DNA of 64,000 nucleotides from a virus (IMGVR_UViG_3300029705_006930), one strand, 5' to 3'. Counted from the stretch's first letter, positions 2,621 to 56,749 are shown. The notes: generated by a model from the sequence alone, not told the origin. Numbers and translations are program-made.

Positions 2621-3442
2621 CTACCCATTTAATGCGCTGTCAATACTGTCCGCCATCGCATTAATTTCGCCCTGTGTTATTGTAAGGTATGTTTTTGTTA
2701 CGCGCTGGTCACTGTGCTTGTACTTTGCCTGCAAGATGTCCATAACACTGTCGTTGTTCATTGTTTTGCGCGCTGTGTATCCGTATGTTTTGCGCAGTGT
2801 ATGTGTTGCCACGTTCTGTGTGAGGCCCGCCGCCTTTGCACCTTTCTTTAAAATGTCCCACATTTGGTGCAGGCTCATTTGCCCGCCATTGTCACTTTTC
2901 TGGGACTTGATAAGGTAGTCGCTCATTGTATAGTTGCCGTTGAGATGTTCAATGTACATTTCAATGGCTTTTTTTGCGCCCGCTGTTATTTTGTTGCGAT
3001 TGTACTTGCCGGTCTTTTGTTCGTACACATCATAGTAATCTTTTACTGTACCATCCTCATTGAGAACGTCACTGATGCGCGCTCTGAGCAGGTCACTGCC
3101 TCTGTCCCCAATGGTGCAGCCAAACACTACCATCATATAATTGCGGTACTTGTGTCGGCCCCCATGTTCAAGGAAGTAGTTTGCGAGACGCTGAAATTCG
3201 TCCGCGCTGTAAAGAGGCTCTGCACTCTGTGCCTTTTTCACGCCATTGCTTTTGTAAGGCGACGCTGTTCTTGGTGCACGCTGTTTTGGCGCTGGCTTTG
3301 CTGCGGCCATTGCCTGAGCCACTGCATTTGCTATGATGCTCTGGAGCTCGTCCTGTGTCATTTGGAGCTTTGGTGCTGCCGCCTGTGCAGGAAAGTTGAT
3401 TGTATTATTCTGTACGTTTTGTTCTTTTGGCTGAGCGTTCAT
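2621..3442 (-). CDS. int: Tyrosine site-specific recombinase / integrase
   Basis: C-terminal catalytic box HTLRKTYGYTARK ... AKYKHSDQRVTKTYL (R..HxxR..Y). RBS AAGGAGG before the ATG at 3442. Confidence 0.8.
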   Translation of the reverse strand: MNAQPKEQNVQNNTINFPAQAAAPKLQMTQDELQSIIANAVAQAMAAAKPAPKQRAPRTASPYKSNGVKKAQSAEPLYSADEFQRLANYFLEHGGRHKYRNYMMVVFGCTIGDRGSDLLRARISDVLNEDGTVKDYYDVYEQKTGKYNRNKITAGAKKAIEMYIEHLNGNYTMSDYLIKSQKSDNGGQMSLHQMWDILKKGAKAAGLTQNVATHTLRKTYGYTARKTMNNDSVMDILQAKYKHSDQRVTKTYLTITQGEINAMADSIDSALNG

Positions 3443-4340: not shown

Positions 4341-4390
4341 TTTTTTGTACAAAATTTTTCGATTTTTCAAAAATCGGACGCTTGTTGCTA

Positions 4391-4419
4391 TTGACAATCT
4401 GTCGCTCAGGATTTACAAT
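4391..4419 (+). promoter_or_regulatory. SigA-type promoter TTGACA-N17-TACAAT for the sigma-factor gene
   Basis: Consensus -35 and near-consensus -10. Flanked by palindrome CGATTTTTCAAAAATCG (4357–4375) and inverted repeat GTGTAAACcgacaaGTTTACAC (4428–4449). Confidence 0.55.
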
Positions 4420-4545
4420 TTTAAGTGTAAACCGACAAGTTTACACCTACAATTCAATATATCTGTTGTGATTGTTCAAAGGGGGGTACAGATACACAAT
4501 CACAAAATCACACACTATTCAATATTTAAAGGAAGGTATTTATCT

Positions 4546-5241
4546 ATGAAAAAACTCACAAGAAAACAGCTTAAAGCAATAAAAAACACATCAAGCTACA
4601 AATATTTTGAACAATTGAAAACCCTTAAAGGCTCAATGCCGGCAGACAGCAAAAAAACCTATATAGAGCCAAATTCAGACCTTGAAAAATTCGCAAAATT
4701 GCAAGTTATGACCTTAAACAAATATATCCGCCAAGACGGCAAGGGACACAACTTGGCAGCACAAGTTTTGCAAGATTTACAACAGCAAGCTTGTTTGCTT
4801 ATTCTGGAAAACCCTTTAAGCCTTGACTGCTTTACAACAGAACAAGATAAACAGACAGAACAACAGCAACAAGCATTTAAGGCGGTTAAAAATGGTTTAT
4901 ATAGGTATTATTATCACAACTATACAAGCCGCAGCACATCTAAAATTCACAATAACCCGTCAAGTTACATTGCAACAGCTACATATCAAGCAACCGACGA
5001 TATCGGCAAAGATGCACGCGACAGCTATCAAATGGACCTTTACAAATTACATCTGGATGCAATTTTGACAATTTTAACAACGGATGAAAAATACATCTTT
5101 AATGGTTTATTTGTTGAAAACTTAACACAAAAACAACTTGCCGAAAAACTCAATAAATCACAAACTTATGTAGCAAAAACACTTGCAAATATCCGTAGCA
5201 AAATCAAAGCAAATGACCTTGATACACCGATAAACAATTAA
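4546..5241 (+). CDS. Phage-encoded sigma-70 family sigma factor
   Basis: Region-4 HTH LTQKQLAEKLNKSQTYVAKTLANIRSKI; region-2-like upstream segment. RBS AAAGGAAGG; start at codon 68 of the track ORF. Confidence 0.6.
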   Translation: MKKLTRKQLKAIKNTSSYKYFEQLKTLKGSMPADSKKTYIEPNSDLEKFAKLQVMTLNKYIRQDGKGHNLAAQVLQDLQQQACLLILENPLSLDCFTTEQDKQTEQQQQAFKAVKNGLYRYYYHNYTSRSTSKIHNNPSSYIATATYQATDDIGKDARDSYQMDLYKLHLDAILTILTTDEKYIFNGLFVENLTQKQLAEKLNKSQTYVAKTLANIRSKIKANDLDTPINN

Positions 5242-7075: not shown

Positions 7076-7243
7076 ATGAAATCATCTTATAAACGCAAAC
7101 TGCGTAAACAAAAACGAGCTGGTTTATTTGCATTTGTTGCTGGCACAATCGGCAGCATCCTTGTAAGCAACTGGTTTGTCGCAATGCTTTTTTATCCATT
7201 GGCTTGGATATTGTTAACCACAAAGGAAATCATTTGGGAGTAA
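7076..7243 (+). CDS. Small membrane protein
   Basis: RBS GGAGG; basic N-terminus then one hydrophobic helix. Confidence 0.4.
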   Translation: MKSSYKRKLRKQKRAGLFAFVAGTIGSILVSNWFVAMLFYPLAWILLTTKEIIWE

Positions 7244-7302
7244 AATGATTTGCAAATCTCTCTCATATATGATAAAATCTAAAACGAAAGGGGGAGATAA
7301 AA

Positions 7303-7845
7303 ATGTACAACGAAAATGAAAAACCATTGGGAATGTCCGATGAAGAATGGGACGAATTAAACAAGCAAGCCTTCTTTCAGCAATGTCCTGACGAAGTAAA
7401 AGAAATTATCCGTAAACAAGGCATAAATCTTACCGATGAAGAACATGAACAAATATGGCAAGATTTACCAAAGTATTTTGCACATCTGCGCAAAGAACAT
7501 AAAAAGAAAAAAATCATAACTATGTTTACACCAGATGGTTTAAATAAAATTTCGCAGTGCATTAGCATTATAAAAACCATAGGTACTCTAATCAATGAGG
7601 ATGTAAAGATTGAACTTGCTCCAATTGAAACAATTTATCGAGCAAACCAAACAGTTTCTCAATTGATTATCGTAGTAATAAACGAAATTAAGTTTGGACA
7701 AGAAGTTGTAGATGGCAAATGTGGCAATTTATTGTCACAGCTCAATGAAATTGCGGATGTAATTAGTTTGTCCACTGATTATAGTGGAGAAAATATTTCA
7801 ATGCACATTTATATAAACGATGCAGTTGTTGTAAAGGAAATATAA
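7303..7845 (+). CDS. Hypothetical protein
   Basis: RBS AAGGGGGAG. Confidence 0.55.
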   Translation: MYNENEKPLGMSDEEWDELNKQAFFQQCPDEVKEIIRKQGINLTDEEHEQIWQDLPKYFAHLRKEHKKKKIITMFTPDGLNKISQCISIIKTIGTLINEDVKIELAPIETIYRANQTVSQLIIVVINEIKFGQEVVDGKCGNLLSQLNEIADVISLSTDYSGENISMHIYINDAVVVKEI

Positions 7846-7846
7846 A

Positions 7847-8071
7847 ATGGAATACGCAGATTTGATAAACAATTTAATTGCATATCGAAAAAGTCAGAAT
7901 ATTACAACTGTCGAACTTGCTCAAAAAATGAATGTAAGTCGACAATCAGTATATAATATTGAAACTTTGAAAAAAGCTGCACCAGATGAAACTTTGCAAA
8001 AAATGTGTCAAGCATTAAATTTGGAACTTGAAATTGTCCCAAAGCAATACAACATCAAATCCCAAAAATGA
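7847..8071 (+). CDS. XRE-family HTH transcriptional regulator
   Basis: ITTVELAQKMNVSRQSVYNIE, a classic Cro/CI-type HTH. Confidence 0.7.
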   Translation: MEYADLINNLIAYRKSQNITTVELAQKMNVSRQSVYNIETLKKAAPDETLQKMCQALNLELEIVPKQYNIKSQK

Positions 8072-8097
8072 ATTTAATTCCAACAACAAGAAAAGCT

Positions 8098-8130
8098 CAC
8101 GGCTCAGGCTGTGGGCTTTTTTGGTTGCTG
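8098..8130 (+). terminator. Terminator-like hairpin + TTTTTT
   Basis: GCTCACGGCTCAGGCTGTGGGCTTTTTT. Confidence 0.4.
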
Positions 8131-8342
8131 TAACAACCACAATGAAAACATCTCATTGAGCCATTAGGGTAAACTGCGACCTCTTTTGACCTCCTGTGTC
8201 GCAGTTCTCCTCAGTGCCTCAAGAATTTTTTCATATTTACTACCTCTTTCGTAATTGATTGGAGAGCCTATGACTACGGTTGTAGGCTCTCTTGTTTATT
8301 ACGAACACACACACTACATCAACGCGAAAGGAGAATAAAAAA

Positions 8343-8639
8343 ATGAAACCAAAGCGTCTTAAAGCGCGCATCAGCTACGAGTCCGCAGCCGGTGTGCCAG
8401 TAACTTTTGACCGCAAAAATCTCAAAGCTTGGATAGACTTTGAAAATGAAACCTTTACATATACCATTCTTGAAGACGGTGACGTTATAGTGCCGGCTGA
8501 TTTCGGCAAAGACCACGACTACATCAGTGTGCTCACAGGGCAGGTATATGTTTTGGTGCACGAAGTAATTTGGAAACCAGGTGAAGAAATGCCACACGCA
8601 AGACTTATCGGCTATGCAACCGATTGGCAGTACATTTAA
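8343..8639 (+). CDS. Hypothetical protein
   Basis: RBS AAAGGAGAA; start at codon 18 of the track ORF. Confidence 0.5.
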   Translation: MKPKRLKARISYESAAGVPVTFDRKNLKAWIDFENETFTYTILEDGDVIVPADFGKDHDYISVLTGQVYVLVHEVIWKPGEEMPHARLIGYATDWQYI

Positions 8640-12098: not shown

Positions 12099-12224
12099 AT
12101 GTTACGTATTGTTAATGATAGGGGACACCTCCTCGCATATTGCGGAAACAAATTTCTTGTTTCGGCAGACAACGAGCGCGAAATGCAAAAAGAACTTGCA
12201 GAGCTCGGTTACACAATGACATAA
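12099..12224 (+). CDS. Small protein (41 aa)
   Basis: RBS AAAAGGAG; below the ORF-track cutoff. Confidence 0.35.
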   Translation: MLRIVNDRGHLLAYCGNKFLVSADNEREMQKELAELGYTMT

Positions 12225-12280
12225 AGGCAAGCCGGCCTTTATATATACAAACACTATTTTTTATAAAAGGAGATTTTAAA

Positions 12281-12727
12281 ATGGCAAAACTTAATCTTAC
12301 AGCAAATGTGCTGTCCCTTGAATCCGCACTTAAACTCGAAGATATCAAAAACGCAATGCGTTGGTGTCCAGATGCTCTCACAGTTATGGACGAAAAAGGC
12401 GAAGAAGAACTCTTCTCTGTTGCTGCAGGTACTTCAAAAGGTTATATCTCACCATACGGCATCACATTTGCTGCTGCAACAGTTCGTGGTGGTAAAGCTT
12501 GCTACACACGCGAAGTTGCACCAGGCACAGAAATGAAAGATATTGCTGAAGTTGTGCTCGCTGAATATGACAAACCAAAAGCATATCTTGAAGTTGTTGA
12601 AGCTCAGGTTGCTGAAGCTCTCGCAAAAGTTGCTGAACGTAGAACAGCTATTATGGCTGAACTTGCTGGCGAATGCGAATGTCCAGACTGCACACCAGAC
12701 TGTCCAACAGCACAGGGCGAAGAATAA
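12281..12727 (+). CDS. Hypothetical protein with strong codon bias and C-terminal Cys cluster
   Basis: RBS AAAAGGAG. Higher GC than neighbours. Followed by an A/C-rich, G-poor leader before the next gene. Confidence 0.6.
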   Translation: MAKLNLTANVLSLESALKLEDIKNAMRWCPDALTVMDEKGEEELFSVAAGTSKGYISPYGITFAAATVRGGKACYTREVAPGTEMKDIAEVVLAEYDKPKAYLEVVEAQVAEALAKVAERRTAIMAELAGECECPDCTPDCPTAQGEE

Positions 12728-12850: not shown

Positions 12851-13078
12851 ATGCTTAGAATTTATGTTGGTACAAACACAAACCGTACAGCTTACACACT
12901 TTCCCCAGAAACAACCCTCAGAGCAGCTTTTGAAACTGCAGGCGTGAACTATGAAATGGGTACCGCAACTCTTGATGGTTCCACACTTCAGCCGGGCGAC
13001 CTTGACAAGTCTTTTGCAGACTTCGGCATCACAGGTACAGCTTACCTCCTGAGCATTGTTAAAGCAAACAACGCTTAA
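12851..13078 (+). CDS. Ubiquitin-like beta-grasp protein (ThiS/MoaD-like), non-GG C-terminus
   Basis: 75 aa; MLRIYVG...TLDGSTLQPGD...AYLLSIV pattern resembles ThiS/MoaD. First gene of a Ubl/JAB/E1 operon. Confidence 0.45.
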   Translation: MLRIYVGTNTNRTAYTLSPETTLRAAFETAGVNYEMGTATLDGSTLQPGDLDKSFADFGITGTAYLLSIVKANNA

Positions 13079-13139: not shown

Positions 13140-14540
13140 ATGGCACACACATTTAAAAAATGGATGATAAAAGCCATTCCATATGACAACTTGTTTGACA
13201 TATCGGTGGACTTTGAGAATCCATTCCCGACCGATAATCGTCGCGATGCTACACTCGCGGCTGCATTTCACTGTTTGATTAAAGACAGAATTCCAGAGGG
13301 GGTTAATCGCATTGTAGTGCGTGATATCCACTCATATGACTGCAACGTGAGAGACATTTTTGACTATTATGAGGTTGAAAATGGTTTCAAAAGTTGTATT
13401 TTTTACTACGCAGATTGGGACAATGTGAATCTGCAGAGCAAAATTACATTGCCAAATGAATGGGAAGCTCAGGAAATTGCAAGCAAATTTACTGGATGTT
13501 ATGTTACAAATCACGTATCAAAACAATTGATGGTTATCTTTATTCCGAGCAACTATAACCTTGAAACTTGGCATAGACTTGGTGCATTGTTACCAAAATA
13601 TCCAGTGCTCGAGGATATGTGGGCAGCAAAACCACTTACCGAAGATGAACTCAAGATGTTGAAATCACTGTCAACAGACGGTGTAGATTTTGACACATAT
13701 ATAAAAGCGTGGATTGCGACACTCGACCTGCGCACATCCGCAATCAAAAAAATGTTCAACAAATTCATTATTGATAACATCGAGGAACAGATACGCAATG
13801 CCGAAGATAGACGTAGAAGCCTTGAAAACAATATCACAGACTATGCTGCGAGACTGGCAAGGCTGTATAGCGACCTTGACGGTGTTATTGAAATGATAAA
13901 CCGTCTTATGATAGGTGATGACACTGTTGAAGAAAAAGAAAAGAGACTTATCGAATTCTTGTTAACAAACAAAAATGTTGAGCCAATCAGACGTCGCAAT
14001 GACCGCGTTGAATTCAATGTTCACGCAGCAATTGACTGTTGGGATAACGATATGTTCTCATCTTATATCAATAATCACAACAGTTTATTGTATCGCCATA
14101 CAAGCAGATATTCATATGACCAGTTGAAACGTTTTTATGAGCAGGCATTGTTTGCCGGTCGCTTTAAAATTCAGGGCATTGCTAAATTTGAAATTGCAGC
14201 AACAGGTAATGTGAGACCAATTTCAAAAAATGGGCATTGGCCATCAGCTGAAATCGAAAACTGTATTCCAAATACACATGTGGATAAATTCACTTGTATT
14301 GGTAATCACAGACGTATGCTGGATGATGCTGCAAAAATTCGTGACTATGAACAGGCAATTTTGATTGCTATTCAGATTACACAGTCAGTTAACTGGTCGG
14401 ATGGTGCAGTTATGAATCACTTTATTCCTGAAGTGTTGCACTGTGAACGTCCAATTCTTACAGACAGAACAGGCAATACATACACTGTTGCACAGGTAAT
14501 AAGCATACTTGATGCCGAAATAAAGGAGGTTGAAAAATAA
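13140..14540 (+). CDS. Large hypothetical protein, possible E2-like component
   Basis: Sits in the E2 position of a Ubl-E2-DUB-E1 order. C-terminal PNTHVDKFTCIGN is weakly HPN-Cys-like. E2 assignment is weak. Confidence 0.5.
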   Translation: MAHTFKKWMIKAIPYDNLFDISVDFENPFPTDNRRDATLAAAFHCLIKDRIPEGVNRIVVRDIHSYDCNVRDIFDYYEVENGFKSCIFYYADWDNVNLQSKITLPNEWEAQEIASKFTGCYVTNHVSKQLMVIFIPSNYNLETWHRLGALLPKYPVLEDMWAAKPLTEDELKMLKSLSTDGVDFDTYIKAWIATLDLRTSAIKKMFNKFIIDNIEEQIRNAEDRRRSLENNITDYAARLARLYSDLDGVIEMINRLMIGDDTVEEKEKRLIEFLLTNKNVEPIRRRNDRVEFNVHAAIDCWDNDMFSSYINNHNSLLYRHTSRYSYDQLKRFYEQALFAGRFKIQGIAKFEIAATGNVRPISKNGHWPSAEIENCIPNTHVDKFTCIGNHRRMLDDAAKIRDYEQAILIAIQITQSVNWSDGAVMNHFIPEVLHCERPILTDRTGNTYTVAQVISILDAEIKEVEK

Positions 14541-15484: not shown

Positions 15485-16174
15485 ATGGACTTAAGTAAAT
15501 CACTTGACTGGTTTAATCCAGACAGCGTTTCGGAACGCATACATATTATCGGATGCGGTAGTGTAGGTAGTACAGTTGTGGAACTGTTGGCAAGATTCGG
15601 TCTTACAAAGTTCACTCTGTATGATTTTGACCTTGTTGAACCTCACAATATCGCAAACCAGATGTTCAGAAAAACGGACATTGGTAAAACAAAAGTTGAA
15701 GCATTGCAGCAGATTGTATGTGAAATCAATCCAGAGGCGGGCAAAGATATTAAACTTGAACCAGAAGGTTGGCACGGACAGCAGTTGTCTGGCTATGTAG
15801 TTCTTGCTGTTGATAGCATTGAATTGCGTAAAAAGATTTGTGAAGGTTTGCAGATGAATATCTTTGTTAAAGCTGTGTTTGATTTCCGTACAAGTTTGCT
15901 CAACGCACAGCATTATGCAGCCAATTGGCAGGACAAAAAACATCGTGATGACCTCATTGCAACAATGCAGTTCACCGATGAAGAAGCTGCGGCTGAAAAC
16001 CCAGTATCAGCGTGTGGTGTAACACTTGGTGTCGCACCAACAGTAAGACTGATATGCACACTAGGCGTAAGCAATATGATGAACTTTTTCAGAGAAAAGA
16101 AATTGAAAAAAGTTGTATTGGCAGACGCATTTAATTTTGATGCTGACCCTATGGTATTACCTATGGGTCAATAA
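15485..16174 (+). CDS. E1-like ThiF/MoeB-family adenylyltransferase
   Basis: IIGCGSVGSTVVELLARFGL...LYDFDLVEPHNIANQMF, a Rossmann GxGxxG plus D.D.VE.sN..RQ signature. Confidence 0.75.
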   Translation: MDLSKSLDWFNPDSVSERIHIIGCGSVGSTVVELLARFGLTKFTLYDFDLVEPHNIANQMFRKTDIGKTKVEALQQIVCEINPEAGKDIKLEPEGWHGQQLSGYVVLAVDSIELRKKICEGLQMNIFVKAVFDFRTSLLNAQHYAANWQDKKHRDDLIATMQFTDEEAAAENPVSACGVTLGVAPTVRLICTLGVSNMMNFFREKKLKKVVLADAFNFDADPMVLPMGQ

Positions 16175-16199
16175 TACACAATAAGAGAAATGTTTATGG

Positions 16200-16500
16200 T
16201 GAATATTGCACATTGTATGGCAAGCTTTTGCTGTTAGCAGAAGTAAAGAAATGGTAGAGAACATAGAGGCAGGCGCTTAAGGAGCACGCTGAGGTGATTC
16301 CTAAGTACTGCAGCTTCTTGCATCCGACGAGCTCTGAAAAGGTAGGTTTAACAGGAGGATTGGATTACTTACAAGTGAAATTAACCAGTTCAAACCGTAA
16401 AGCTCATCTGAAATTAACGATAAATCCCAGATTTGCATCTCTTTTATCCGGGAATGAAGGGCTTAAAACTATAGCTAGACCATAAACAAGATAGGGAGGA
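16200..16500 (+). ncRNA. Candidate structured non-coding RNA upstream of the RT (contains repeat copy 1)
   Basis: 320 nt gap with repeat TTGCTGTTAGCAGaagtaaaGAAATGGTAGAGAA. An alternative GTG-start 63 aa ORF (16294..16485) with RBS AAGGAG cannot be excluded. Confidence 0.25.
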
Positions 16501-16504
16501 CATT

Positions 16505-17860
16505 ATGGTTTATATCACATATCCAGCACCTAACAAATTTCATCAGATTACATTTGAAGAAATGATGTCGGGCAATGTTAATACAGATAAATTAAGAATT
16601 TTAGGCGGACATAATACGCTTACTTTGCATCTTAACGATGTACCTGCAAACTTAAAAGGTCAGACTTCTGTACGCAAAATGATTGCAGATTTGCAGTATT
16701 TTGTAGGTGTATATTATGACACACTGATGCCACAGATAAAAGAATTTGAGAAGCTTTCAGATGCTCAGCGTCGCAGCGTCAAACAGCGTGACAAGATTGA
16801 AAATTATTTTGAACAGATGGGCGCAACTGCAAATGATGAAGACTTGCAGAAAATCACTGAACAGGTAGATGCGCTGCAGTGTGAAGTTGCAGAACAGCAG
16901 TATAAATATGCTTACTATACATTCGATTTGCGCAAAAGTTCAGCGCCGGAACACATTCCATTGTGGCGACTGCCAAAAGAATACAGACGTACAATCAATG
17001 CTCCGAACATACATCTTAAAAATGCGCTATATGAACTTAAAGAACTGTTTGAAAATATGATGATACGTACATATCATACTGCATCATTTGCGTATGTTAA
17101 ACATCGTGGAACTTTGGATGCTGTAAAACGTCATCAGAGCTGGGAAAGCAAATGGTTTGCAAAGTTTGACTTTTCAGATTTCTTTGGTAGCACAACAATT
17201 GACTTTGTTATGCAACAGTTCTCTCAAATATATCCGTTTAATATGATTTGTGCATATAAAGATGGTAAAGAAGCTCTTTATAAAGCATTGCAGTTGTGTT
17301 TTTTGGACGGTGGACTTCCACAGGGCACACCTATTAGTCCTCTCATCACAAACATAATGATGATACCATTTGACCACGCAATGTCAAAAGCTCTTAAAGA
17401 ATTTAAATATCCAAACAAACACGGTAGTGAACGTTTTGTGTATACAAGATATGCTGATGACCTGCTTATCAGTTGCCGTGTGGATTTTAAAGTGGAAATT
17501 ATTCAGGCATTTATTCTGGAAACTTTAAAATCAATGAATGCGCCTTTTAGCCTTAACGTTAAGAAAACTCGTTACGGTTCTAGTGCAGGTAGCAACTGGA
17601 ATCTTGGGGTGATGCTTAACAAAGACAATAAAATTACAATCGGTGCAGAAAACAAGCGCAGACTTAAAGCTTCTTTGAATTCATTTATCCTTGATATGAA
17701 GAATGAAAAACCTTGGGATATTTCTATGGTGTATAGACTCAGAGGTCAGATTTCTTATTATCGTAATGTGGAAAGGGAAGCAACAAATAACATCATTGCA
17801 GCGATGAACACAAAATATGGTGTTGATGCAGAAGCAATGATGAAATCTATTATAAGTTAA
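16505..17860 (+). CDS. Reverse transcriptase, retron/Abi-like
   Basis: RT motifs FAYVKHRGTLDAV, KFDFSDFFGS, LPQGTPISPLITN, YTRYADDLLIS (YADD). Motif-7 region NLGVMLNKDNKITIGAENKRR aligns to the retron VTGLVIS...IGRE block. Confidence 0.8.
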   Translation: MVYITYPAPNKFHQITFEEMMSGNVNTDKLRILGGHNTLTLHLNDVPANLKGQTSVRKMIADLQYFVGVYYDTLMPQIKEFEKLSDAQRRSVKQRDKIENYFEQMGATANDEDLQKITEQVDALQCEVAEQQYKYAYYTFDLRKSSAPEHIPLWRLPKEYRRTINAPNIHLKNALYELKELFENMMIRTYHTASFAYVKHRGTLDAVKRHQSWESKWFAKFDFSDFFGSTTIDFVMQQFSQIYPFNMICAYKDGKEALYKALQLCFLDGGLPQGTPISPLITNIMMIPFDHAMSKALKEFKYPNKHGSERFVYTRYADDLLISCRVDFKVEIIQAFILETLKSMNAPFSLNVKKTRYGSSAGSNWNLGVMLNKDNKITIGAENKRRLKASLNSFILDMKNEKPWDISMVYRLRGQISYYRNVEREATNNIIAAMNTKYGVDAEAMMKSIIS

Positions 17861-18797
17861 TTTAATTTTTATATATTGAATATCACAGTCATTGTGAAGT
17901 GTTGATGTTATCGGCACTAACGAAATGGTAAGAAAGTATGGCAGGAAGGCCCGCAGGTTCATGATGAAGACGCGTGCGAGCTTACAGCTCCAGCATAAAA
18001 ATTAGAAATGCTGGTACAATGAAAAGGAAGAAAATCATGAACGAAAGCCATACTTTCCAACATCCACAAAACCACGAATTTAAAACGCTTCATTACTCCG
18101 CGACCCTCCGCCAGGAGGGCCCGGGCGCGGTAAAGCGTCAAATAAATAATTGAGAATATATAAAAAAACTTTATTGAATATCTTTAAATTTGTACATAAA
18201 TTTAAGAACTGTTGCTGTTAGCAGCAGTGTCAAACGAACAGGATAAATAAAGAAATACAAATTTCTTTATTTAAATAACTTCTTAGCGTCGTAAGGCGCG
18301 ATGCTCCGACATCGCTCATGACGACGCCAAAGTTATTGAGAATAAAGTTAAAAAAATAATAAGAAAAATAAACAGTGTATATTTGCATAGCAAAGCTATT
18401 GATGTAATCAGTAGTACAGAAATGGTAGGAAAGATTACACGGGACGGTGTCGCCGGTGAGGAGCCACCTCCTTTGCAAACCCCTGCAATATTTCTAAAAC
18501 CTAATTAAAACTATGTCCGAATGGTCAAACATAACAGGAGGACTGAGAAACATCACCTGAAGGATACCAACTGAACCCCCAGTTCAGATGACACGACAGC
18601 TGGAGAAATCTAGACCCATGGGATGGTGATTCAACATTAAATTACAATTCAGACTGTTTATTGCTTTATAGTTTTTGCCAAGCTACGAAAACTCCAAATA
18701 ATGAGTAGTGTGTGACATAAAAGCCAAGCCTCGTCAACTCCCTTTCGGGGCTTGGTAAAGACTATAAAACAAACAATTTAAGTAAAGGAGAATATAT
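17861..18797 (+). ncRNA. About 940 nt structured non-coding region downstream of the RT with three further repeat copies
   Basis: Repeats at 17902–17939, 18212–18224, 18399–18436. GC-rich nested hairpins read at 18097–18140, 18287–18327, 18565–18590 and 18723–18760. Confidence 0.3.
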
Positions 18798-19187
18798 ATG
18801 ACAAAAGCAGAAAAAGCAGCTGGCAGGCTGTTAAGAAGAATGAATAAAGAATACTTGGGTGAGGTAGAAGCATTGATAAAAATGTGTCGACAGCCTAAAG
18901 TTGACCTTTCTGAAATCAGTATTCAGTCCTACAAAGTAACAGTTTTGGCAGAGCTCAAAGACGAATTTTTTGCAATCAAAATGACAGAAGATGAAATGGA
19001 GTATATTTATGACCTCTATGCTTGTCTTGATGCTCCTTTGAATTATTTGTGGGAATGTTGGCGTGATGATGAAGGCTATAACATTTCTGACTCCATTGGT
19101 GATTTAGTTTCTGATATTATAAGCCAGGATATCGAATGTATTTCAGAAGATAACTTAATCGAGGTGAATATGGATGAGACTGAATGA
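18798..19187 (+). CDS. Hypothetical protein
   Basis: RBS AAAGGAG. Confidence 0.55.
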   Translation: MTKAEKAAGRLLRRMNKEYLGEVEALIKMCRQPKVDLSEISIQSYKVTVLAELKDEFFAIKMTEDEMEYIYDLYACLDAPLNYLWECWRDDEGYNISDSIGDLVSDIISQDIECISEDNLIEVNMDETE

Positions 19188-55426: not shown

Positions 55427-56749
55427 ATGAGACAAATATTAAATATGAGAGAAACATTAACGCGAGTAAGTTTTTTATTTAAGACTATTGCGAGTACACC
55501 AAGGACAACTGAAAAGAAACGATTGTTGCGTTATATCAACAGCTCAGAACCAGAGAATGTATGTGAAATGTTTCTGTATACTTTACGATTTTTATTGGAT
55601 AACAATGTAACAACAGGTATCGATAAAAAGAAACTCAAAGCTCAAATTAATATGCCTGATATTAATTTTCCAATGAAATGGTCACATATGTTGGAATATA
55701 TCAAAGAAAACAATACAGGAAGGCATGAAGATATTCGCAGAGCACAGCTCTTTATCGAAGATAATCCCGAGAATGCGGAATTTATTGCTGATATTATAAC
55801 AAAATCATATAGGTTAGGACTGACAGCCAAAACAGTAAATGAAGTTTATGAAGATTTTATTCCTGTTTGGTCAGTACAGCAGGCATATCCTTTGGAAAAA
55901 TATCCGCTTAAGGACGGAGAATGGTTTTCTTTATCACAAAAGCTTAATGGGTTCCATGCCTCATATTACAAGGGTAAATTAATAAGCCGACAAGGAAAAG
56001 AAATCAAAGGTTGTAAGCACGTTATTAACGCAATAAACAACTTTAAACTTCAAGATTTCTTTATTGATGGCGAGCTTATCCGGCGTAATGATATTGAACC
56101 TCATCTCTCAGACGAAGAAAATTTTCGACAGACTGTTTCAATTGCGAATTCTGATTCTGACGACAAAACAGACCTGTGTTTTATTTATTATGATATCATT
56201 CCAGCTGATGATTTTGACAAAGGCAAATGTGAAATAACATATCGCCAACGTCTTAATGACATGCATAAATTAAACAGTATAATTCTGCAGACTCCATTTT
56301 ATAAAACGTTTCATATGGTGAAATGGTTTTATCACGGCAATGACCAAAAGAAAATTCAGTTTTGGCTTGATTATGCAAATGAAAATGATATGGAGGGTCT
56401 TATGTTAAATAAGGATACTGTATATCAATGCAAACGTAATTCAGGCATTTTAAAGGTAAAAAGTTGGAAACATTGTGACCTTAGAGTAACGGGCGTTGAA
56501 GAAGGCGATGGCAAATACAAAGGAACCCTTGGAAAACTGATTGTGGACTATAAAGGAAATACTTTGGGATTAAGTGGAATGAGCGATGAGGAACGTTATA
56601 TATTTTGGAATAATCCACAGGACATAGTTGGGAAGATTGTGCTCGTTAAATATAAACAGGAAACAAAAGACAAAACAGGTAAACGTAGTTTGCAGTTCGC
56701 AACCTACCAAGGTGTTAGAACTGATAAAGATGAAGTCAGCTACAATTAA
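55427..56749 (+). CDS. ATP-dependent DNA ligase
   Basis: KLNGFHA (I), FIDGELI (III), EGLMLNK (IV), ILKVKSW (V). Confidence 0.65.
   Translation: MRQILNMRETLTRVSFLFKTIASTPRTTEKKRLLRYINSSEPENVCEMFLYTLRFLLDNNVTTGIDKKKLKAQINMPDINFPMKWSHMLEYIKENNTGRHEDIRRAQLFIEDNPENAEFIADIITKSYRLGLTAKTVNEVYEDFIPVWSVQQAYPLEKYPLKDGEWFSLSQKLNGFHASYYKGKLISRQGKEIKGCKHVINAINNFKLQDFFIDGELIRRNDIEPHLSDEENFRQTVSIANSDSDDKTDLCFIYYDIIPADDFDKGKCEITYRQRLNDMHKLNSIILQTPFYKTFHMVKWFYHGNDQKKIQFWLDYANENDMEGLMLNKDTVYQCKRNSGILKVKSWKHCDLRVTGVEEGDGKYKGTLGKLIVDYKGNTLGLSGMSDEERYIFWNNPQDIVGKIVLVKYKQETKDKTGKRSLQFATYQGVRTDKDEVSYN

Follow-up and report, generated by a model that had tools for sequence, protein, structure and literature searches.

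A gene for a reverse transcriptase (RT) of 451 aa in the 64,000-nt viral sequence IMGVR_UViG_3300029705_006930 (hereafter the window, meaning this whole stretch) is flanked by four copies of a hairpin-forming repeat, and our comparison with about 200 related phage or prophage loci (L-numbered) supports the conclusion that these repeats belong to conserved RNA modules and not to ordinary spacer DNA, as the hairpin covaries and the architecture and lengths of the modules recur. A first-pass annotation of the sequence had described the RT as stand-alone. It is, however, the last gene of a cassette that runs, 5' to 3', from a 75-aa ubiquitin-like protein (Ubl) through a 466-aa protein, a JAB-type metallopeptidase candidate and a ThiF/E1-like adenylyltransferase (E1) to the RT, and this order is found in all groups of related loci. 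Temperate, SPbeta-like phages of gut Clostridia share this locus as a single conserved cassette, which also carries, on the strand of the RT, between two and five RNA units. One of them leads the RT mRNA and the others lie 3' of the RT gene, and their structured bodies, which are specific to the lineage, measure 190–400 nt (Table 1 for the window).

The hairpin tag and its RNA modules

The repeat search returned a single family of four copies (at 16222, 17896, 18206 and 18393, with 60–79% identity to the reference copy), in agreement with the four copies that had been noticed earlier. The repeat, which we call the tag, consists of an 8-bp stem with a 3-nt G-T-N loop (P1) followed by a UAMAG..AAUGGUA tail, as in the copy CUUUUGCU-GUU-AGCAGAAG-UAAAGAAAUGGUAGAG; in the third copy (18209), the hairpin is kept and the tail is different. 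The four window copies already differ from each other by compensatory changes (GCU/AGC versus GAU/AUC, and CUU/AAG versus GUG/CAC). A covariance model of the tag, built from 24 copies of the window and seven relatives, found four sites only in the 64 kb, all on the plus strand, with E-values of 1e-9 to 7.5e-7 and the next best match at E=0.71; because these four copies were part of the model alignment, the informative result is that nothing else in the window matches. In 99 further loci outside the model training, 71 tag matches were obtained, and 70 of them were on the RT strand. Among 55 distinct copies outside the training set, P1 was paired in 98.6% of the cells, six of its eight pairs showed compensatory changes, and its covariation score was reached by none of 500 shuffles, with the caveat that the alignment of these independent copies was fitted to the model. 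When the roughly 80 copies known from independent loci, almost all on the strand of the RT, are taken together, P1 covaries strongly, and the family-wide consensus of the tag reads GCUUY-stem-loop-stem-RAAG-UAAC-AAnUUGA, followed by a purine-rich stretch.

Two further elements accompany the tag. A promoter-like box (TGnWATWTT or GTAATGnATT) precedes every tag by 10–30 nt, and a second small hairpin of arbitrary sequence (P0) directly abuts the base of P1; a stem of 6 bp or more that stops there was present in 79% of 77 tags, as compared to 18% in shuffles. As each repeat lies just 3' of a promoter-like box, each module is probably a transcription unit of its own. It had been suggested that the repeats themselves might act as promoters, and their position next to such a box makes this partly right.

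The tags are not evenly spread over the loci. They cluster 200–320 nt ahead of the RT start and 30–70 nt behind its stop, a small number being found 0.3–3 kb downstream. In two loci of 20 kb, tags were detected 257 nt ahead of the RT start and 67 and 331 nt behind the stop, and nowhere else. RT lineages of 36–57% identity and widely differing GC content have all retained a tag on either side of the gene. The sequence of the tag differs between lineages and is common within a locus, which fits a co-evolution with a binder encoded by the locus. At the same places, more distant lineages use a different hairpin; one of them, group A, has CTCTTCGGTTATATCCAAGAG on both sides of the RT, and its hairpin reads CTCTTCGG-TTATAT-CCAAGAG, followed by GAATTTGT. 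Two other ideas about the tag were rejected. For a CRISPR repeat or an RNA anti-CRISPR, which the tag recalls by its hairpin with a handle, an exact-pattern scan of JGI metagenomes gave five single occurrences and no arrays, and for a tRNA primer-binding site, the relevant sequence (TGGTA.., the complement of ..ACCA) is limited to the clade of the window, other lineages having UUGAU or UUGAG instead. A scan of viral sequences with the window-type tag gave mostly chance matches and one true relative, L082.

Table 1. Features of the window, with the RT and the RNA modules first, the other cassette genes second and further genes last
Feature	Position	Strand	Remarks
RT, retron clade, 451 aa	16505..17860	+	ORF (open reading frame) intact; Pfam RVT_1 E=3.7e-18
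M0, leader RNA of the RT gene	16198..16504	+	variable body runs to the ribosome-binding site (RBS) of the RT
M0, box	16198-16207	+	GGTGAATATT
M0, P0	16206-16223	+	TTGC/GCAA
M0, P1	16225-16243	+
M0, tail	16244-16259	+	UAAAGAAAUGGUAGAG
63-aa GTG ORF inside M0	16294..16485	+	no family match
M1	17876..18173	+	box TTGAATATC; P0 TCACA/TGTGA 17883-17897; P1 17899-17917; tail; GC-rich 3' hairpin
M2, short variant	18174..18373	+	box; P0; P1 18209-18227; divergent tail; two hairpins
M3	18374..18797	+	box AGTGTATATT; P0 TTTGC/GCAAA 18382-18394; P1 18396-18414; tail; body; 3' hairpin
Ubl, 75 aa, beta-grasp	12851..13078	+	first cassette gene; syntenic in 61 loci
466-aa protein	13140..14540	+	syntenic homologues of 19-32% identity in most loci; 440-500 aa in relatives
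JAB/MPN-type metallopeptidase candidate, 311 aa	14540..15475	+	syntenic in nearly all loci, 31-48% identity
ThiF/E1-like adenylyltransferase, 229 aa	15485..16174	+	Pfam ThiF E=1.4e-20
ATP-dependent DNA ligase-like gene, first of two separate genes	110-1411	-
ATP-dependent DNA ligase-like gene, second	55427-56749	+
Tyrosine-integrase-like gene	2621-3442	-
Sigma-factor-like ORF	4345-5241		weak match
Serine integrase	62420 to window end

The four modules M0 to M3 of the window differ in what follows the tag. In M1, an 11-bp long-range helix starts right after the tail (GAAAGUAUGGC/GCCAUACUUUC, 17930–17940 with 18047–18057), and M3 ends in a conserved 25-bp hairpin (about 18657–18776) just 5' of the RBS of the next gene, in which 14 of the 25 pairs show compensatory changes among 7 loci; the gene downstream of this hairpin is not conserved. 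The folding energies relative to dinucleotide shuffles (z = −4.1 for 17890–18170, −7.2 for 18200–18360, and −2.6 for 18388–18797) bear out the earlier suggestion of structured flanks for the downstream side only. The complete layout M0-RT-M1-M2-M3 is kept in four relatives (L062, L099, L100, and L101) whose RTs are 46–57% identical to that of the window, whereas in L065 and L098, only M0 and M3 remain. In relatives, M1 measures 310–336 nt, M2 187–220 nt, and M3 373–415 nt, and the M2 layout of a tag and two hairpins is conserved in four of them. The module bodies keep their length and hairpin layout and not their sequence, and no ORF is present in M1 or M2. Consensus folds of M1, M2, and the group A spacers were prevented by bodies that are too divergent to align, P1 aside, and a weak stem of five pairs was predicted at the end of the M2 alignment. 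Rfam gave no match at the gathering threshold for the whole window and nothing credible at E-values up to 10 for 16100–18850, ARAGORN detected no tRNA or tmRNA in the window, and scans for sigma-70 promoters and intrinsic terminators were no better than shuffles. The 63-aa ORF within M0, which had been considered as a possible accessory protein, is probably not a gene, since it has no tblastn match in the roughly 200 related loci and no family match.

Some observations on the module bodies stand on their own. Another motif (ACAGGAGGA), located some 125 nt behind the tag, is confined to the near relatives of the window, and M0 and M3 share UAACAGGAGGAYUG about 125–135 nt after their tags. M3 contains CACCUCCUUU at 18465–18474, paired with GGUGAGGAG in the predicted fold, and we take this sequence to be identical to the anti-Shine-Dalgarno 3' end of 16S rRNA. 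In some relatives, the modules on either side of the RT are identical over long stretches, namely over at least 128 nt in L151 (3840–3968 and 5590–5718) and over 48–70 nt in L137 (3397–3445 and 5316–5364) and L171; the stretches in L151 and L137 indicate a recent duplication or gene conversion between the RT-flanking units. In the close relative L065, a gene for an HNH/RRXRR endonuclease (7090–8349) lies directly 3' of the M3-type module, which suggests a hotspot of insertion at the junction that follows the RNA modules.

The reverse transcriptase and its ubiquitin-like partners

The RT is, by sequence and by predicted fold with the thumb included, a member of the retron clade, with Ec78, Ec83, and St85 as its best counterparts. 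That it carries all RT motifs, is retron-like and is no group II maturase had been recognized from the start and agrees with our analyses: the 451-aa ORF was confirmed, and the LPQGTPISP and YTRYADD motifs are invariant in 58 homologues. In PADLOC, the RT matches the retron RT_II-A model at 2e-41, and the best 25 of 58 matches are all to retron models. The NCBIfam match to the retron St85 family reaches 1e-46 with 159 bits, which is below the family cutoff of 235 bits. With a profile of the RT family, the PDB search gave the Ec83 RT at 4e-31, and the solved Ec83 and Ec78 retron RTs were matched over the whole enzyme. The AlphaFold2 model of the RT (mean predicted local distance difference test, pLDDT, 91.5) was found by Foldseek to resemble most the retron RTs Eco7/Ec78 and Ec83, with TM-scores, normalized to the target, of 0.75–0.82, and structures of group II and defence-associated RTs (DRTs) ranked below them.

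Three other identities of the RT were tried and rejected. A group II maturase does not fit, as no intron RNA was found with Rfam and as the group II model of NCBIfam (3e-20) ranks far under the retron models. The affinity to UG/Abi enzymes and DRTs that the annotation had included did not hold up, since the Drt2 (1.6e-12) and Drt3a (4e-6) models, both matching over short stretches only, are far weaker than those of retrons and the best 25 of the 58 PADLOC matches are all to retrons. An RT of a diversity-generating retroelement (DGR) was discarded because 16100–18850 contains no long repeat resembling a template/variable repeat pair (TR/VR) and because the DGR RT structure came only 26th in the fold search. 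The systems DRT2 and DRT9 nevertheless offer a parallel, as they also combine an RT with an adjacent structured non-coding RNA (ncRNA) that lacks the a1/a2 repeats of retrons, and there complementary DNA (cDNA) is made from a scaffolded template; their RTs, however, belong to the UG/Abi lineage, unlike the enzyme studied here.

The family has features of its own. An N-terminal extension of 70–135 aa is conserved, which in the window comprises about 135 aa including a helical insertion of about 60 aa. The retron regions X (NAxxH) and Y (VTG) have been described as signature motifs (PMC7736814); in the alignment to Ec83, NAKIH corresponds to AVKRH and VTG to NLG, and the residues that the same study found most conserved in these regions (H210 and G368) are invariant in the RT family, while their neighbours differ. 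An integrase or endonuclease domain was not detected in the RT, neither by Pfam nor in the AlphaFold2 model. The protein search gave 4,528 matches at E ≤0.001, a number to be read as an upper limit because other retron RTs may be among them. Its best 120 matches have scores of 348 bits or more, and in GTDB species genomes, 399 matches were obtained.

The first cassette gene encodes a small protein whose AlphaFold2 model (pLDDT 93) gave ubiquitin, NEDD8, SUMO, and a bacterial complex of a Ubl with a deubiquitinase (8tyx) as top Foldseek matches. Its C-terminus is conserved as VVKADNA (...VKANNA in the window) and is not Gly-Gly, which suggests an unusual E1 substrate. Some homologues continue for 1–30 residues past VVKADNA, and this suggests C-terminal processing, in which the JAB peptidase could remove the extensions. 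The 466-aa protein had no match in Pfam, PADLOC, PHROGs, or NCBIfam, and a word-indexed homology search returned only the protein itself. The profile of its family gave a weak N-terminal match to the RWD domain (E=0.034), and one Cys (C386) and one His (H380) are invariant; judged from these sequence data, the protein possibly has an E2/RWD-like N-terminus. The 311-aa protein gave no Pfam model at threshold, and no PADLOC model matched this JAB; a JAMM motif H-S-H-x7-S-x2-D (GHSHVNMECFASGTD) could be read in its translation. The E1 is matched by Cap2-type E1-E2 models of PADLOC with E-values down to 3e-17 and by the NCBIfam models ThiF and 6A-MBL cap2_3.

The association of these genes with the RT is tight. 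An E1 homologue is present in 161 of 180 RT-bearing loci, usually directly 5' of the RT, and an E1-anchored search yielded 29 loci, with an RT downstream in all 28 that contained enough sequence there. In L111, the E1 gene has moved downstream of the RT, so the linkage survives rearrangement. Genes further up- and downstream of the cassette are not conserved. A 195-aa ORF just 5' of the Ubl gene (12140–12727 in the window), with a sub-threshold match to Zot-like P-loop proteins, is conserved among 18 related loci and could belong to the cassette as a sixth gene. In 18 other loci, a small protein (158 aa in L216) that is absent from the window is encoded near the cassette; in L216, L217, and L187, a protein of this type lies between JAB and E1.

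Some cassettes have in addition acquired a gene for RNase H1, with a hybrid-binding domain and an RNase H domain (L216 10330–10971, L217 10331–10975, L187 1053–1691, and L141 5212–5838; L170 has a fifth, weak match of 28% identity). It is absent from the window and its position differs between loci: in the L216/L217-type variant, it lies between the Ubl and the large protein, and in L187 and L141, it lies beside the RT, in L141 downstream of the RT and behind a tag-led leader. The RNase H1-bearing variant is very common, as its Ubl was found on more than 350 contigs, including a record of Ruminococcus sp. AF12-5. The joining of RNase H1 to some cassettes argues, indirectly, for real cDNA synthesis or RNA–DNA hybrid chemistry.

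The protein part of the cassette recalls the Bil/Bub operons (Ubl, E2, JAB, and E1) and the Cap2/Cap3 proteins of CBASS, with which it shares the order of Ubl, large middle protein, JAB, and E1, the ubiquitin fold, the match to Cap2-type E1, and the JAMM motif. It differs from them in its location on phages or prophages, in its association with an RT and with tagged RNAs, in the Asp/Asn-Asn-Ala end of the Ubl in place of Gly, and in its middle protein, which beyond the weak RWD match has no recognizable E2 domain; neither this protein nor the JAB was matched by a PADLOC model.

Possible roles of the tags: template handles or transcript leaders

What the tags do can be explained in more than one way. 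We tentatively favour a reading, to which we give not quite an even chance, in which the tag is the RNA handle of the RT, the variable bodies are cDNA templates, and the system operates jointly with the Ubl machinery in the manner of a retron that has a new set of effectors. The P1 tag would be recognized by the RT, in the role that the msr stem-loop and linker have for retron RTs, and the bodies of several tagged RNAs would serve as templates, giving rise to cDNA or RNA–DNA hybrids. The products of the RT would act with Ubl, E1, and JAB as the complex of a retron RT and its msDNA (multicopy single-stranded DNA) acts with its effector, and the outcome could be superinfection exclusion by the prophage, or else counter-defence or host takeover early in infection. 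An a1/a2 stem with a branching G, which could account for priming, was not found. This reading is suggested by the restriction of the tags to the RT flanks in the 64-kb and 20-kb stretches, by their presence on both sides of the RT in distant lineages and by their lineage specificity, and also by bodies that vary at constant size, by intact catalytic residues, and by the recruitment of RNase H1 in some cassettes. The retron-clade identity of the RT, the covariation and strand preference of the tag, and the linkage of the cassette genes speak for it as well.

The locus resembles retrons (types I-A and II-A: Ec78/Eco7, Ec83, and St85/Sen2) in several respects. Besides the RT sequence with its thumb and the predicted fold, there is a conserved RNA unit directly 5' of the RT on the same strand, a conserved hairpin and linker with a variable body downstream, so that the variable bodies of constant length can be likened to the msd and the conserved part to the msr, and a genetic coupling of the RT to partner genes that are not RTs. 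Retrons are known to be carried by temperate phages, for example Ec73, which is also the case here. There are also differences: here, several tagged RNAs are found per locus and on both sides of the RT, whereas retrons have one ncRNA; the N-terminal extension, the only partly kept NAxxH and VTG motifs, and the St85 score under the cutoff set the enzyme apart; and Ubl, 466-aa protein, JAB, and E1 are absent from the 13 retron types, in a classification that contains neither "ThiF" nor "ubiquitin" (PMC7736814).

A number of findings weigh against the handle-and-template reading. The retron ncRNA is defined by a1/a2 inverted repeats, which enclose the msr-msd and set the position of the branching G (PMC12673091; PMC7736814). 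For each of 25 loci, we used RNAduplex to pair the 3' part of M0 with two segments, one of 60 nt ahead of the tag and one of 45 nt behind it. The duplex energies did not differ from those of shuffles (mean z −0.05 and −0.12), although short or bulged stems could have escaped; nor did the repeat search in 16100–18850 find an inverted repeat of at least 12 nt spanning M0. Long-range helices that begin immediately behind the tail do occur in single modules, such as the 11-bp helix of M1, but they showed no a1/a2 design in common. The retron-type ncRNA modules suspected by the annotation are therefore conserved and covarying, but as no a1/a2 repeat was found, calling them retron ncRNA is an analogy only, and retron membership is supported for the protein and not for the RNA. 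The spacer at 16215–16504 was no more stable than shuffles (z=0.06), apart from the tag hairpin, so that the upstream flank did not turn out to be structured as had been claimed. The RTs of group B (L034–L060) have no tag and follow E1 directly, and three tRNA genes take the place of M1–M3; hence, the tag is not needed by every member of the RT family. In L035 (4940–5550), and also in L041 and L055, the gap between E1 and RT is 14 nt, and the non-coding region downstream contains tRNA-Gln, tRNA-Leu, and tRNA-Met; the region also includes a structured spacer, some 160 nt long, which a 12-bp helix (GGTATTGTGTAG...CTACACAATACC) closes. Furthermore, some tags are located 1.5–3 kb from the RT, in front of unrelated ORFs, and most often 230–310 nt lie between a tag and the ORF that follows it, whether this is the RT or another gene. 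Finally, common descent within one broad phage group, and not function, could explain part of the synteny.

Several of these points would be expected if the tags were promoter-proximal leaders of phage transcription units and the RNAs were not templates of the RT, which we regard as the main rival and a serious possibility, albeit less likely than not and somewhat less likely than the first reading. P0 would then be a 5' stabilizer, P1 and the tail would bind a phage antiterminator, an RNA chaperone, or a processing factor by a logic like that of lambda nut, and the region 3' of the RT would be an island of small RNAs and leaders. The box before every tag and the abutment of P0 and P1 fit such leaders, as do the tags before unrelated ORFs and the uniform distance to the next ORF. 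In group B, where the RT has no upstream spacer of its own, the tRNA-Gln gene is preceded by the same promoter-like box and a P0-type hairpin as the tags elsewhere, without a tag. The phage group has, moreover, transcription machinery that could be involved (the sigma-like ORF at 4345–5241 and a YonO-like polymerase in relatives). Phage small-RNA and tRNA islands and lambda nut leaders are comparable in their short units with a promoter-like box of their own and a hairpin near the presumed RNA 5' end, and one subgroup has tRNA genes in this place, with the same box and P0 in front of them; unlike in those islands and leaders, the tags here are confined to the RT flanks, and the bodies have 190–400 nt and include neither a tRNA nor an Rfam family. 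A general signal would also be expected at more operons than at the RT flanks to which the tags are restricted in the 64 kb and the two 20-kb loci, M1 and M2 have conserved lengths and no ORF to lead, and the preservation of a tag on each side of RTs as diverged in identity and GC content as those described above is not what a leader function would predict. The two models are not exclusive, as a tagged leader could be at once the 5' region of an mRNA and a substrate of the RT.

It is also conceivable, but in our view improbable, that the RT binds the tags as a regulator of its own mRNA and of neighbouring transcripts, acting on their translation or stability, with bodies that are not copied and a catalysis that is directed to another substrate. 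Group II intron RTs bind domain IVa (DIVa) at their own start codon, and in the present loci, a tag lies in the leader of the RT itself, the tags co-vary with the RT lineage, and the a1/a2 priming structure was not found. The tag is, however, 200–320 nt away from the RT start codon and not at the RBS, and invariant catalytic motifs together with an RNase H1 in some cassettes speak against this reading. Least of all do we expect the RT and the direct repeats to be a mobile retroelement, similar to those with long terminal repeats or of another kind, active or remnant, to which E1, JAB, and Ubl would be unrelated. Such an element could account for the direct repeats around the RT, some of which are long and identical (at least 128 nt in L151, and 48–70 nt in L137 and L171), but in about 200 loci, the RT occupies the same place after E1, and an insertion polymorphism was not seen there; the RT has no integrase or endonuclease domain, and there are more than two repeats, which head distinct conserved modules.

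A further step beyond the handle-and-template reading would be that the RT, the tagged RNAs, and Ubl, E1, and JAB form one machine that couples reverse transcription to ubiquitin-like conjugation, a proposal that we regard as rather unlikely from the present sequence comparisons. The DNA or hybrid made by the RT might license or target the E1-activated Ubl or be covalently joined by it, or, alternatively, the Ubl system might modify the RT itself. Such a phage-borne system would be of a type that retrons, DRTs, DGRs, and Bil do not represent, and it would prime without an a1/a2 stem.

The phage group and the meaning of the cassette

The window is phage-like, with nearly all genes on the plus strand, a GC content of about 35%, and ribosome-binding sites that are strong Shine-Dalgarno sequences, and it also encodes a DNA polymerase, a DnaB-like helicase, ligases, and a ribonucleotide reductase. 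With these genes and with serine and tyrosine-like integrases, it is a large temperate phage. No GenBank phage gave a megablast match to the window region of 12–22 kb. The relatives were binned with Oscillospiraceae, Lachnospiraceae, Acutalibacteraceae, Christensenellales, and similar Clostridia. Upstream of their cassettes, a YonO-like RNA polymerase of the RNA-dependent RNA polymerase (RdRP) fold, a protein with a YonV_C domain, and a sigma-like protein are encoded (L216 1–2228 and 2967–4142), and the YonO-like polymerase and the YonV_C protein near the RNase H1-bearing cassette variant point to SPbeta-like phages. This suggests phages with a transcription machinery of their own, which may read the conserved promoter-like box.

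Full-text searches of the literature gave no description of a phage RT linked to ThiF, JAB, and Ubl genes. The fold of the RT is already known, and what appears to be new at the sequence level is the architecture of several RNAs with a common hairpin tag and no detectable a1/a2 repeats, the location on phages, and the set of Ubl partners. Retron-clade RTs are understood as bacterial defence sensors that have one ncRNA and one of 13 effector types, and a large RT family in temperate phages of gut Clostridia departs from this picture. If the pieces work together, the cassette links reverse transcription with prokaryotic ubiquitin-like signalling, and as one cassette variant is present in the Ruminococcus sp. 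AF12-5 record, the system is tractable. RTs that take several natural templates by means of a short and portable hairpin tag would, if the handle-and-template reading is true, be of interest for retron-based DNA-writing tools, and if the tags are leaders, they still represent a conserved and covarying RNA motif of an abundant group of gut phages.

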